Source: Octopus vulgaris
Lineage: Eukaryota
Assembly: GCA_951406725.2 (NCBI GenBank)
Contig: OX597816.1
Location: 100,564,001-100,628,000, forward strand
DNA length: 64,000 nt
Reading direction: 5' to 3'
The number at the start of each line of letters is the position of its first letter. Position 1 is the first letter of the stretch. The notes beneath the pieces were generated by a model. The model ran no database searches and was not told where the DNA came from. It was given only the letters and a program-made list of their open reading frames with translations. Position numbers and translations under genes: made by a program. Below are positions 7,648 to 62,690 of this stretch, piece by piece.

Positions 7648-8135
7648 TTGGGTCAACTCAAAAATAATGCGTGTTTTTCAATTGCATGAACTAAAAGCCA
7701 TAGGGGGACGGGATAAACTACCTGCATCAACTTGATAGAAAAACAGATAGTAATTTTACCTTGTACTTATTCTTATTGCAAGTTGTGAAGAGTGCAGTTC
7801 ATTTTTTAACAATTATTTTTTCAAAGCTATAATGGAAGTGACAAAGCAGCATATTCGACATATTTTGCTTTATGAGTTCAATAAAGGCAACAGTGCAATG
7901 GAAAATGTGAGGAATATTAATGCAGTACATGGGAATTGGACAATAAGTGTAAGCCAGTGTCAACGGGGGTTCCAGAAATTCCAAGCTGGAAACTATCGTC
8001 TAGAAAACGAGCCTCATATAAGAAGATCTGTAGAGCTTGATGAGGACATACTGCAAACCCTGGTGGAAAAAAATTCCATCATAACTGTTGAGGAACTAGC
8101 AGAGAAGCTTAGATTTGGTCATTCAACTATTCATA
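7648..8135 (+). mobile_element. mariner transposon 5' fragment (TIR plus N-terminal HTH of transposase), truncated by the tandem array
   Basis: TA then TTGGGTCAACTCAAAAATAATGCG, a TIR-like end. ORF from 7832 reads HIRHILLYEFNKG...CQRGFQKFQAGNYRLENEP...TVEELAEKL..GHSTIHR, the mariner DNA-binding domain. Homology stops at TA 8134-8135. Confidence 0.9.
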
Positions 8136-9027
8136 GACTGAGAGCACTAGTCAGCACCAGTATTGCTAGAAATAAGAGTTAAAAGAACTCATAGCCATGA
8201 AAAGCACTTATTTTAATGATTGACAAGAGAAGCAAGCTTCCTCAGCAACCAGGCATAGTCAGGTCACAGTGATATTGCATTTTTATTAATGCTCATCAGT
8301 GACTCTCACCTAGTGCCTTAAGTTAAACTTAACTTGCCTTGTTATTTTATAAGATTATTGTAGAAATCATACTCTGATTTCCTAAATGGTAAAAGTGAAA
8401 ATTATAAATAATAATGCTAGCTTATTTGCAATTTTACAACCAAAAGGCAGAAATATATATGTTGCTAAAGTGATTCAGGGTACTAGTCACCACCTGTATT
8501 GCTAGAAATAAGAGTTAAAAGAACTCATAGCCATGAGAAGCGCTTATCTTAATGACTGACAAGGGAGGTAAATTCCTTCAGTGTCCAGGCATAGCCAGAT
8601 TACAGTGATTTCACATTTTTATTAATGCTCATCAGTGACTCTCACCTAGTGCCTTGGATTAAACTCTACTCGCCTTGTCAGTTTATAAGATTATTGTAGA
8701 AATCATATGCTGATTTCCTAAATGGTATTGGTGAAAATTATAAATAACAAGGGTAGCTTATTCGTAATTTCACCACCGAAGAGCAGAAATATATATGTCA
8801 CGGAAGTGACTGAGAGCACTAGTTAGTCAGTACCAGTATTGCTAGAAATAAGAGTTAAAAGAACTCAAAGCCACAAGAAGCATTTATCTTAATGACTGAG
8901 AAGGGAAGCAAGCTTCCTCAATGTTTAGGCAGAGCCAGATCACAGTGATTTTTCATTTTTTTAAATACTTGTCAGTGACTTTCACCTAGCGCCTTGGGTT
9001 AAGTTCAACTCACCTTGTCAGTTTATA
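8136..9027 (-). repeat. Retrozyme-like tandem array, ~2.6 copies of a 336-340 bp unit, each with a hammerhead motif
   Basis: TATTGCTAGAAATAAGAG recurs at 8161, 8497 and 8837. HHR motif on the minus strand in each unit. No ORF. Confidence 0.85.
8593..8640 (-). ncRNA. Type I hammerhead ribozyme motif (best-preserved copy of the 338-bp array)
   Basis: Minus strand reads AGUCA CUGAUGA GCAUU-AAUAAA-AAUGU GAAA UCACUGUAA UC UGGCU, giving stem I, core, stem II, GAAA, stem III (one mismatch) and an AUC site. Copies at 8257-8304 and 8933-8980 have core mutations. Confidence 0.75.
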
Positions 9028-34203: not shown

Positions 34204-34895
34204 ATCAGGTCATCAAGAATGAAATGCTTGATTTTGAACTGAAAGTTTATTTTTCTTTATCTCAACAAAAAGCAGTGCAGTTAATCAAAGTATGCACTTA
34301 AATTATCAACACAATTTTACCATTTTATTGATAGCTTATTTAAGCTGGCAGTGAAGAATTCTGGAGAGCAAGAGGTGATGAAATCATGAAAGGCTGTTTT
34401 TGCATCTTCTTCAGATTTGAAGGTTTTTCCTAACAAAATGTTGTCTAATGCCTGGAAAACATGATAGTCATTTGGTGCAAGGTCTAGTGAATATGGTGGA
34501 TGACAGAGTTCTTTCAAGTTCAGTTCCTGTAACTTGAGTAGAGTTCTTTTTGCAACATATGGTAAAGCATTGTGTTGCAAGAGAATTGGCCTGTCTCTAT
34601 TGACCAACCTCAGTTGTTTAGTTGCAAGTTCACTCATCATTTCATCCAATTGGTTGATGTATACATCCACTGTAATTGACTTACCAGGGCTCATGAAGCT
34701 GTAGTGGATGACACCTGCAGTGGAGCACTAAACAGACACCATTAACTTTTTTTTGGTGAATATTCTTTTTTGGATTGTGTTTTGGGACTTCATCTCTATC
34801 CAGCCACCATGCAGAACACTTACTATTGTTGAAACAAATCCATTTTCCATCACTCATAACAATACAATGCAAAAATGGTTTGTTTTTATGTTGAT
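34204..34895 (-). mobile_element. mariner transposon 3' half, degenerate
   Basis: IVMSDGKW..., PILLQHNALPY...HPPYSLDLAPNDYH (YSPDLAP.D motif). TIR-like end next to the TA run at 34199-34204. Confidence 0.9.
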
Positions 34896-37358: not shown

Positions 37359-37405
37359 GAAAAAAACGAAACTCGTCAATAAGACATTTTAGCATTTATA
37401 TATAT

Positions 37406-37451
<46 letters not shown>

Positions 37452-37553
37452 ATATATACATATATATATATACATATACATATATATATATATACATATA
37501 TATACATATACATATATATATATACATATACATATATATATATATACATATAC

Positions 37554-37585
<32 letters not shown>

Positions 37586-37752
37586 ATATATATATATCGT
37601 GACGTATTTTTGCCATTTCAATATGGCTAACCCCTAAGGGTGGATGCTACTGTAGTTTTTAGCCCCAGGAGAACACACTCCTCCAGCTGGCCATAGACAC
37701 ACTATCTGTGTCCTGTCAGTATTTGCAAAGGGAAGTCATCCTTCCCGTCTTC

Positions 37753-37820
37753 AACTTATGATACACACGGACTCGAGTTTCGAGGTATTGACCTCTCGTC
37801 AGCGTGTGACAATCATAGTT
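37753..37820 (-). ncRNA. Type I hammerhead ribozyme, intact
   Basis: Reverse complement of 38266-38333. Confidence 0.9.
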
Positions 37821-38265
37821 GTCGCCGAGAATTAGATTTCCTTCACAAATACTTATACTTTTTCCAGCGTCCACTGTCGCTGATATTGAAAAAGTGAAAT
37901 CAAACAATGATAAATATCAAAGTGAGTTATATACAGTAGCGGTAACACATCATGACGTATTTTTGCCATTTCAATATGGCTAACCCCTAAGGGTGGATGC
38001 TACTGTAGTTTTTAGCCCCAGGAGGACACACCCCTCCAGCTGGCCATAGACACACTATCTGTGTCCTGTCAGTATTTGCAAAGGGAAGTCAACCCTTAGG
38101 GGTTAGCCATATTGAAATGGCAAAAATACGTCACGATGTGTTACCGCTACTGTATATAACTCACTTTGATATTTATCATTGTTTGATTTCACTTTTTCAA
38201 TATCAGCGACAGTGGACGCTGGAAAAAGTATAAGTATTTGTGAAGGAAATCTAATTCTCGGCGAC

Positions 38266-38333
38266 AACTATGATTGTCACACGCTGACGAGAGGTCAATA
38301 CCTCGAAACTCGAGTCCGTGTGTATCATAAGTT
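38266..38333 (+). ncRNA. Type I hammerhead ribozyme, intact
   Basis: CACACG CUGACGA GAGGU-CAAU-ACCUC GAAA CUCGAG UC^ CGUGUG. Stem I is extended past an internal loop (UAUGAU/AUCAUA). Predicted cleavage after C38316. Confidence 0.92.
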
Positions 38334-38567
38334 GAAGACGGGAAGGATGACTTCGCTTTGCAAATACTGACAGGACACAGATAGTGTTTCTATGGCCAGC
38401 TGGAGGAGTGTGTCCTCCTGGGGCTAAAAACTACAGTAGCATCCACCCTTAGGGGTTAGCCATATTGAAATGGCAAAAATACGTCACGATGTGTTACCGC
38501 TACTGTATATAACTCACTTTGATATTTATCATTATATATATATACATATACATATATATACATATAC

Positions 38568-38774
<207 letters not shown>

Positions 38775-38835
38775 CATATACATATACATATATATATACA
38801 TATATATATATATACATATATATATATACATACAC

Positions 38836-38866
<31 letters not shown>

Positions 38867-38907
38867 CACACACATATATATATATACATATACATATATA
38901 CACACAC

Positions 38908-38940
<33 letters not shown>

Positions 38941-39034
38941 CACACACATATATATATATACATATACATACACACATATATATATATATATACACATATA
39001 TATATACACACACACATATATATATACACGTGTG

Positions 39035-39071
<37 letters not shown>

Positions 39072-39329
39072 ATACATATATGTGTATAATTCATTTAAAC
39101 CATCTCTCATCAATTTCTCGTTCACACCAAACAACGTAAACTCCACTCACTCTTCCATTCAATCACACCCTATGCCACTACCCCAACTCCTACCCTACCT
39201 CTCTCACTCCTTGATACGCTCCCCCACCCTCACCTACCCCTGTCCCTCCCACCACCACTCCATCCACATACCTCATCCCCTCCCTCCCAACCTTCCACCA
39301 CCCCTCCTACTTCTGTCCCATCCACCCCT

Positions 39330-39843
39330 TCTCCACTTCAGTCTGTTGTTACCATTCCTCCAGATCATCCCCCTCTCTGAGACGAAGTGCTCCCTCTGCA
39401 GCAGGGGTGTGTGTTTCACCTCCCTCACTCCATCCAGCAACAAATTTTGGGCTCGTGCCGATATCTACAGCTTTGTGCACCACATTAGGTTTAGTGCGCT
39501 TTTCCGTGCCACTCCACCTGCATCTAATGAGAACTGCTTCACTAACCTGGGCTACCGACCATCCCAGTGGATGCAGCTCCTGGCGGTCGATCTTTTTGCA
39601 GGTGCCTGCCGGTTTGACTTTTCCAGGCATCCCCGGCATCTGAACATCTACCCAGTCAAACTCTCAGCTCTTCGATGTCTCCGACACTGCACGGACATCA
39701 TCATAAAACCGGCTGACAAGGGTGGATCCATGGTGGTGCGGCACGCGGTCCTCTACAAGGCGGAAGCTCTTCACTAACTTCAAGACACCTACTTCTACTG
39801 CCCTCCAGCCCCACACCCAGCTACCAACAGACTGTGTCCTCTA

Positions 39844-39845
<2 letters not shown>
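39330..39845 (+). mobile_element. Penelope-like element ORF fragment (region N-terminal to RT)
   Basis: [16 protein letters not shown] (like LS..E..LL.KGL.F) and [24 protein letters not shown], the PLE/TERT-like motif 1. Ends in a stop and (TA)n. Confidence 0.85.
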
Positions 39846-39884
<39 letters not shown>

Positions 39885-61517: not shown

Positions 61518-61830
61518 TAATAGTAATGATAAGACAGCAAAAGAATGACCTCGATATTATGTAAATAGAGGAATTTATCTGTAATATAATATGTGACTAT
61601 TATTCGGTTGCTATAATAAGATTCCGAGTTTCGGGTATCACGACAGAAACCTGCTCCGGCATCTCTTCAGTTATCGAGGCAATCAAAATATGCTATGAAA
61701 ATGACCATTAGACAAAGGGAAATTACTATGTTATTGACTGTTATTAAGAGAAAAAAGCTATTAGAATGACCGTTAAATAAGGGGAAAAACTGATGGAGGA
61801 AGTAAAAAGTGAAGAAGTAAAAATGCTCAT
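61516..61830 (-). mobile_element. Inverted pseudo-LTR of the adjacent PLE, with degenerate HHR (61615-61675)
   Basis: Abuts (TA)n. Minus strand reads GAUAA CUGAAGA...CCC GAAA CUCGGAA UC UUAUU, with stems II and III mismatched. Confidence 0.55.
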
Positions 61831-61879
61831 TGCAATCACATATGCGCGCATGTACCCTACTCAATATGTTGGGCAAGAC

Positions 61880-62690
61880 TTTTCTTGATGTATATTTTGC
61901 CATTTACAAAGATGATGGCCTAGCTTTAACCGCAAATACCAATGGATCAGCACAAGATCTGTTTAGGAAGGACATTATCCAAATGATGAAAACTTTCAGT
62001 CTTAGCATAACTACAGATACCAACCTGATGGTTGTCAATTTCCTAGATGTATCCTTAGATCTAAATAAGAATATTTATGAACCTTATAGGAAGCCCGGTG
62101 ATAGACTTAGTTATATTAATGTGGGTTCCTGCCATCCCCCCATGGTGTTTAAAAATTTAGTTAAAAACATTAGCAGAAGAATTTCTAGCCTCTCCTCCGA
62201 TAGGGACATTTTCAATAGCATTACCCCAGTATATAATAATGCTTGCTCTAAAAGATAGTGGATTTAGCAAGGAAATAACCTATAGATCTGTCACCAGTCC
62301 AGTAATAAATAAAAGGAAACATATGAATAGGAAAACTATCTGGTTCACTCACCCCTACTCCCCCCAAAGTGACCATTAATATAGGAATTTCAAGGCCAGG
62401 TTCAACAATCACACCTTGAGCTTCAGGCACTGGGATAAAAGGAAAAGGACCAAAATTATCCAGTCATATATGGTCCTTAAAAGATAAAGGTGTCAATTAC
62501 AATACGTTGGAAGATCTTAACCAAGTGTAAGCCTTACACTAATGGCAGTAGAAAGTGCGGTCTTTGTGATATGGAAAGATGGCTCATCTGGAAAAGCAGC
62601 TTAGACCTTGCTACATGTCGAAATTCAAGAACTGAACTTTTTGGATCATGTTCACATAGCTAAATATTTGTTACATTTTTGGTCCCCCCA
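61880..62690 (+). mobile_element. Penelope-like retroelement, RT C-terminus plus endonuclease region, decayed (Naiad-like)
   Basis: YKDDGL, VVNFLDVSLDL..YEPYRKP..SCHPP. Then frameshifted TIWF..PYS, FKARFNNHTLSF, LSSHIWSLKD, CGLCDMER and NSRTEL..CSH. The GIY-YIG signature segment itself appears deleted. Confidence 0.9.

Follow-up and report, generated by a model that had tools for sequence, protein, structure and literature searches.

What mobilises the retrozymes of animals, and is their circular RNA the template that is turned into DNA? Both questions are raised by positions 37596–38533 of the 64,000-nt stretch of Octopus vulgaris contig OX597816.1 analysed here (the window), where two inverted arms of a short hammerhead-bearing repeat lie between TA tracts. 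Mobilisation of retrozymes by Penelope-type elements (PLEs) has so far been a proposal only; here, the insertion ends themselves carry a PLE signature. Because the family is young, lying 0.3–0.7% from its column majority, both the mobiliser and the template can be addressed from the genome. On balance, we think it probable that the locus is a young retrozyme insertion made by a borrowed Penelope-type reverse transcriptase–endonuclease that copied a predicted 353-nt circle from two fixed sites.

Anatomy of the locus

The first-pass annotation had described a 353-nt unit in head-to-head arms of 496 and 442 nt between TA tracts, and repeat analysis and mapping onto the unit confirm this layout. 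Arm 1 (37596–38091, minus strand, 496 nt) runs from unit position 257 to 353, through a whole unit from 1 to 353 and on to position 46, where its 3′ end coincides with the proximal of two start sites, E1; its terminal AT is possibly target-derived. Arm 2 (38092–38533, plus strand, 442 nt) runs from position 1 to 353 and on to 89, the distal start site E2. One complete 353-nt unit, used as the reference frame with unit position 1 at 38092, occupies 38092–38444 (plus strand). The arms meet 5′ to 5′ at 38089–38094 with an exact microhomology of 2 nt. The RNA 3′ ends of both face outward, as had been claimed, into a left target tract of (TA)n type (37398–37597) and a right (TA)n tract (38533–39053). 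A 43-nt tail (unit 47–89; 38491–38533, plus strand) terminates arm 2 and is absent from the end of arm 1. A conserved three-hairpin domain (unit 341–62) lies at 38432–38506 (plus strand), with E1 in the loop of its third hairpin.

Direct repeats at 353-nt spacing pair 37596–37741 with 37949–38094 (97%) and 38089–38180 with 38442–38533 (99%), and the inverted repeat extends over 402 nt at 99%. Few substitutions between copies had been reported; called against the column majority of the 353-nt family, there are five, each in a single copy (37672, 37952, 38032, 38355 and 38388). The unit has a GC content of 42% and, read cyclically, its longest stop-free stretch in any frame is 66 codons, so it is non-coding. 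Its circular fold beats those of shuffled sequences (z = −6.0; minus strand, −5.1).

A hammerhead ribozyme motif in each arm

Rfam model RF00163 matches over its full length at 37764–37808 (minus strand) and 38278–38322 (plus strand), with 32.2 bits (E = 6.1e-6), just below the 34-bit gathering score. A structural hammerhead scan of the 64-kb window returned 3 sites, one in each arm and one at 8635 (minus strand), against 0 in 50 shuffles, which bears out the type I motif that had been read in each arm. The first match is the hammerhead of arm 1, with a predicted cut after C37770; the second is the core of the arm 2 hammerhead, which spans 38265–38334 (plus strand) with its extended, bulged stem I. 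Its predicted cut, after C38316 (C38316|C38317; unit 225), agrees with the position proposed earlier. There is one canonical type I hammerhead per unit, on one strand only. Rfam microRNA matches in the window derive from TA repeats and were discarded.

The third scan site belongs to an older 336-nt tandem repeat at 8146–9027 (minus strand; 2.6 copies, 83% alike), beside a mariner fragment. The structural scan finds a hammerhead-like core in it, with no Rfam match, and the repeat is probably a decayed, unrelated retrozyme. Mariner transposase fragments occur in the window at 7754–8182 (plus strand) and 34317–34727 (minus strand).

We aligned the hammerhead across 20 rows drawn from several subfamilies and one distant relative. 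In this alignment 96% of helix cells are paired and 7 pairs show two-sided change (0/500 shuffles). Three rows are misplaced owing to wrong coordinates and contribute to stem III alone, the older rows were chosen by their 3′ strand, and most two-sided changes are owed to a single stem II pair and the distant relative; covariation is thus support, but not proof, for a fold that would have been maintained through compensatory changes.

In folding predictions, the active hammerhead lies 5.9 kcal/mol above the minimum-energy fold, in fragment and circle alike, and stem III has a pairing probability of 0.00 within the monomer. The 8-nt palindrome that makes up stem III (38308–38315, plus strand) is predicted to pair between two ribozymes, the two-strand fold having an 8-bp intermolecular stem III at −50.9 versus 2 × −23.1 kcal/mol. 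The predicted folds fit dimeric cleavage, as described in PMC4209133 for hammerheads with a short helix III, and agree with the earlier suggestion that the palindromic stem III would favour a dimer.

A young, non-coding family

The exact pattern of the ribozyme core occurs in 451 copies genome-wide (2.80 Gb, 227 contigs) and that of unit 14–43 in 717. The first 100 of these 717 matches correspond to 37 insertions, which suggests about 265 young insertions. Among the 40 scored out of 2299 genome candidates, full-length units are mostly 97–100% identical, and divergence from the column majority is 0.32% at best-match loci and 0.73% at pattern-selected loci. The longest array of the young subfamily has 6 units, and that of an older subfamily 9. 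The older subfamilies (85–90% identity) and a colinear 355-nt sister family share the anatomy of the young 353-nt family, and the whole-unit fold is conserved across them, with two-sided change in 14 of 94 predicted pairs. The 353-nt element is a young, non-coding, non-LTR hammerhead retrozyme that has recently spread to a few hundred sites; its description as young and non-coding stands, on this divergence and the 66-codon ceiling on stop-free stretches. The expectation of many TA-flanked copies was likewise borne out, by the 451 cores and by TA next to 105 of 117 standard ends.

Membership of a viroid-like RNA class was rejected, given hundreds of genomic DNA copies and a hammerhead in one polarity only. 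Counting unit 229–258 to detect stops at the cut site was also discarded: the 895 matches against 451 cores gave an apparent pile-up, but of 20 extra loci most are older subfamilies at 85–94% identity, which voids the test. One of those 20, L214, is a young copy with a core substitution.

Assembled contigs from presumed RNA runs cover the 353-nt unit. One of them measures 383 nt, or 353 + 30, as a cyclic path, a length that a tandem array would match equally; a deeper contig considered as a helper transcript proved to be a related copy extending into its flank.

The young 355-nt sister retrozyme (L009:560–960, L259 and L264; 2720 candidates) has a like asymmetry of its two ends. Two further hammerhead repeat families also end in TA: one (L251:9580–9901, minus strand) has downstream hairpins in common with the unit, and the other (L034:420–1050, minus strand) the palindromic stem III alone.

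Two fixed 3′ ends, one per arm

The ends were analysed in 82 insertions at 80 loci, comprising 39 best-match loci and 41 among the first 100 core matches; L007 and L089 were left out as duplicates of L006 and L084. The 5′ ends are scattered across the entire 353-nt unit. The 3′ ends, in contrast, fall into two clusters, E1 at unit 37–46 (64 arms end at 46) and E2 at 86–94 (mostly 89 and 92). Permutation points had been expected to vary, which is true of the 5′ ends and fails for the 3′ ends, fixed as these are at two asymmetrically paired sites.

An inverted, 5′-truncated second arm in head-to-head orientation is present in 44 of the 82 insertions. E1 is paired with E2 in 39 of these 44 young two-armed insertions, one end is non-standard in the other 5, and the same site is used twice in none. 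Four additional two-armed loci are all E1/E2, giving 43 of 48 overall with same-site pairs still at 0; among two-armed insertions of the older subfamilies (85–90%), 6 of 9 are E1/E2 and again none is same-site. One-armed insertions (n = 38) end at E1 in 29 cases, at E2 in 5 and elsewhere in 4. In 28 of 35 insertions the tail, the stretch by which one arm outruns the other, measures either 43 or 46 nt (range 41–55). Two insertions outside microsatellites, L124 and L140, have target duplications of 8–9 and 11–12 bp, and the central junction shows microhomology of at least 3 nt in 15 of 40 cases, compared with 5.5% at random.

This combination of fixed ends and one-per-site pairing is the 'inverted pLTR plus tail' signature of PLEs, found here on a retrozyme; ends so PLE-like suggest copying by a borrowed enzyme. 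The two fixed, asymmetrically paired 3′ sites are our strongest evidence on mechanism. The occurrence of both orientations had been taken as the footprint of a circular RNA, a view we do not uphold: it is the inverted-arm footprint of PLEs and by itself no sign of a circle. The accompanying idea of priming from both sides of a break is supported by the two-armed end pattern.

Fold-back copying of one arm was ruled out for the 12 of 35 simple insertions, 37596–38533 among them, in which each arm includes a stretch missing from the other, so that both arms must have been copied from RNA. In the predicted fold, E1 sits in a hairpin loop of the three-hairpin domain and E2 in a partly unpaired region; the domain is a candidate docking site for the reverse transcriptase.

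The template is continuous across the cut site

Read-through at the cut site was assessed in 37 insertions chosen without requiring the ribozyme. The cut site is crossed by 42 of 60 arms, and 32 of 60 are longer than one unit. Of 68 passes, 2 end no more than 6 nt from the site, against 1.98 expected, and the junction shows 0 indels over 553 bases. E1 lies 174 nt and E2 about 217–220 nt downstream of the cut, so that a cleaved linear monomer would cap arms at those lengths. As arms cross the site with neither an excess of stops nor an indel, the template is continuous there, as the first-pass annotation had supposed.

Variants indicate how many units that template held. Scored at five family markers, 552 of 553 within-arm pairs and 161 of 164 between-arm comparisons are concordant, where chance would give 0.50–0.79. 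Rare variants are often present in every unit of both arms (as in L067, L121 and L134), and 31 variants fixed across all copies of at least one insertion define 28 haplotypes among the 82 insertions. Unit-specific variants that recur between insertions number 18, fewer than the 29.6 given by a simple chance model. Repeated bottlenecks of one unit, together with seamless junctions, make a monomer circle the best explanation, and the data point to a single monomer, most likely circular, as the template.

Several observations count against a circle. The old 9-unit array L222 (1400–4550) is a mosaic in which variants recur in non-adjacent units and the 5′ unit is of another haplotype; markers are mixed in L027, L123 and L138; and 5′ ends fall near the cut site, at 221–232, in L068, L125 and L309. 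Sharing of markers between arms could alternatively reflect two RNAs transcribed at a single source locus. Moreover, in 34 of 35 insertions the summed length of the two arms is greater than one circle, so a single common circle would require strand displacement.

Read-through without strand displacement would also follow if PLE-type machinery copied an uncleaved linear multimer from a genomic array, with ribozyme and circle incidental. Possible source arrays of 5–9 units exist (L070, L117 and L222), and RNA left unprocessed is the main substrate of the anole PLE in vitro (PMC11167929). We nonetheless regard this as unlikely, because it gives no one-unit bottleneck, which each of the 31 fixed variants (28 haplotypes) needs, and unit-specific variants recur between insertions no more than by chance. 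With 5′ truncation and no circle, arrays would only shrink over the generations, and the compensatory changes that appear to keep the hammerhead fold speak in the same direction.

More doubtful still is a cleaved linear monomer whose tandem units arise when the reverse transcriptase jumps precisely from the RNA 5′ end to either a 3′ end or a repeated stretch. It predicts one-haplotype arrays equally well, and the few 5′ ends at 221–232 and the haplotype switch in L222 are in its favour. Jumps would be expected to leave less clean junctions than those seen, with stops at chance level and no indel at the cut-site junction.

Candidate helpers

The genome holds three young PLE families with long intact frames, of 781 aa, 717 aa and about 1100 aa. 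The 717-aa family, which we take to be Hydra-like, has a tail of about 66 nt and the 781-aa family one of about 40 nt; in the ~1100-aa family a single end was seen, and in a fourth, older family the tail is about 41 nt long. Ahead of GIY-YIG, the 781-aa protein carries the Cys motif characteristic of Neptune and Nematis. Between the unit tail and the tail of the 781-aa family there is a weak likeness (24/3000 shuffles), noticed post hoc and in one of three families; over a wider window the comparison is not significant (310/1000 shuffles). Tail length and this weak likeness lead us to name the 781-aa family, tentatively and with doubt outweighing confidence, as the best helper candidate. A tail motif in common with the ~1100-aa family was rejected as not significant (1659/3000), and one in common with the fourth family turned out to be a single-copy variant.

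Young TA-targeting PLEs at L061–L066 (for example L062) carry a separate frame of about 479 aa upstream of the 781-aa RT/GIY-YIG frame, and their terminal repeat combines a minimal hammerhead-like motif with CCAAT/TGACGTC-rich repeats. The young ~1100-aa family (L238–L247) has a pyrimidine-rich coding strand without a stop codon directly after the endonuclease domain. Within the window, a 717-aa family fragment lies at 61821–62258 (plus strand), and a decayed relative of the ~1100-aa family at 39100–39846, separated from the retrozyme by TA; no link between the latter fragment and the retrozyme was found.

PLE protein matches lie near the retrozyme in 8 of 102 loci, in 4 of them across the TA tract. 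At L003/L278, L102/L280 and L130/L279, the 5′ side of the arm abuts PLE sequence, coding or terminal, with no TA in between; these are possible two-RNA chimeras. In L125 (1509–2150), an arm has its 5′ end at unit 227, the cut site, where a short duplication links it to the terminal repeat of the 717-aa family, the join falling just past that element's own hammerhead-like motif. We set aside the joins at L003, L102, L130 and L125 as helper evidence, since three different families are involved and the joins can be accounted for by a retrozyme landing in a TA tract next to a PLE and target DNA being lost.

Could the copies be terminal-repeat stumps of an autonomous PLE, with tandem units added later by unequal crossover, the satellite route considered by Li et al. 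(2026; 10.64898/2026.07.22.740005)? PLE stumps do show the same inverted arm and tail (PMC3846280, PMC8557442). The unit, however, joins back to itself and has no ORF, and at 0 of 102 loci is it followed on its 3′ side by a PLE reading frame, as that element's repeat would be, in line with the first-pass expectation of no linked ORF. Many arms are 1–2 units long, too short for growth by crossover from a sub-unit stump. Blastn of the unit against 30 + 30 + 30 PLE-region loci of three families matched nothing but the copy in the window itself and a single retrozyme relative; these loci were drawn from 150/6136, 150/12116 and 150/1668 scored candidates, a coverage that leaves the stump reading some room, and the fourth family was compared by eye. 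We judge that reading very improbable. An assembly artefact beside microsatellites, which the long TA tracts on both sides might suggest, is negligible: like anatomy recurs at 44 loci whose junctions differ, and there are locus-specific variants as well as target duplications.

A model for retrozyme insertion

Under the preferred reading, a borrowed Penelope-type enzyme copying a monomer circle, a genomic copy longer than one unit would be transcribed, and successive hammerheads would cut the RNA, probably as dimers, before ligation into a monomer circle. A PLE protein, probably dimeric and of Neptune/Nematis type, would bind the three-hairpin domain and cleave the two strands of an AT-rich target, usually (TA)n; this step is deduced from the ends. 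One target end would then prime at E1, unit 43–46, and the other at E2, unit 88–92, a reaction proposed from the observed end pattern. Each cDNA would continue past the cut site, neither pausing nor leaving a scar, and could go round several times, as the arms record. Finally, the two randomly truncated 5′ ends would be joined head-to-head, often through microhomology, as the junctions display; where the second arm failed, one arm would be left, usually that at E1.

We further propose, as a possibility we would not yet back at even odds, that the insertions directly record how a Penelope-type dimer turned a ribozyme-made circle into DNA by rolling, both ends of one DNA break being primed on that circle, with one subunit at each of the two sites 43–46 nt apart. 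If so, the 43-to-0 asymmetry and the private variants would explain the origin of both the PLE tail and the inverted arm, and the system would be the first animal retrozyme–helper pair that can be rebuilt in vitro. The rule of one arm per site in any case constrains the unexplained inverted-arm mechanism of PLEs, and for an in vitro test the family offers precisely placed start sites, a putative binding domain and young intact-frame helper candidates. Its value lies in offering unusually clear, testable genomic evidence on an open mechanism.

Comparison with known systems

Animal non-LTR retrozymes are described by Cervera and de la Peña (2020; PMC7229834) as tandem 150–450-bp units, non-coding and below 50% GC. 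The 353-nt family resembles them in unit size, low GC, one canonical type I hammerhead and a short palindromic stem III, and also in target duplications longer than 4 bp (here 8–9 and 11–12 bp); judged by features readable from the DNA, it would be an animal non-LTR retrozyme. In that study circles were demonstrated by experiment and the helper was argued from co-occurrence, whereas here the PLE signature is in the ends and the circle is predicted. A circular template and a PLE helper were proposed for retrozymes in PMC7229834 and PMC4209133. The words 'inverted', 'octopus' and 'cephalopod' are absent from the main text of PMC7229834. Li, Clavereau and Pollet (2026; 10.64898/2026.07.22.740005) likewise treat animal retrozymes as non-autonomous PLE derivatives. 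Their evidence, from Xenopus, with no mollusc sampled in the portions of the text available, is co-occurrence and terminal-repeat homology; PLE repeat homology was not found in the octopus family, where end anatomy and haplotypes were measured instead. The words 'tail' and 'head-to-head' do not appear in those portions. Searches of the openly accessible literature turned up no description of the 353-nt family, nor any retrozyme reported to carry the tail signature.

PLE insertions are reported to have an inverted, 5′-truncated arm and a 30–40-nt tail at one end only (Arkhipova 2013, PMC3846280; Craig 2021, PMC8557442). For the anole PLE in vitro, the tail equals the distance between two internal start sites, both DNA strands are cut and extended with a dimer predicted, and uncleaved linear RNA is used, the hammerhead being dispensable (Frangieh 2024, PMC11167929). 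The retrozyme shares with PLE insertions the one-sided tail, the AT-rich or (TA)n target and the inverted head-to-head arm (PMC3846280, PMC8557442), as well as 8–10-bp duplications and two internal starts in a stem-loop region downstream of the hammerhead. Unlike PLEs, it has no ORF, its hammerhead is canonical rather than minimal, and an arm can comprise several full turns of a small unit; its tail is mostly 43–46 nt compared with 30–40 nt in PLEs (PMC3846280, PMC8557442). The MRC1-type elements of Chlamys are also non-autonomous PLE parasites with multicopy head-to-tail insertions; they resemble their helpers at the 3′ end and belong to a clade reported in PMC8557442 to be without canonical hammerheads, whereas the octopus retrozyme brings its own ribozyme.
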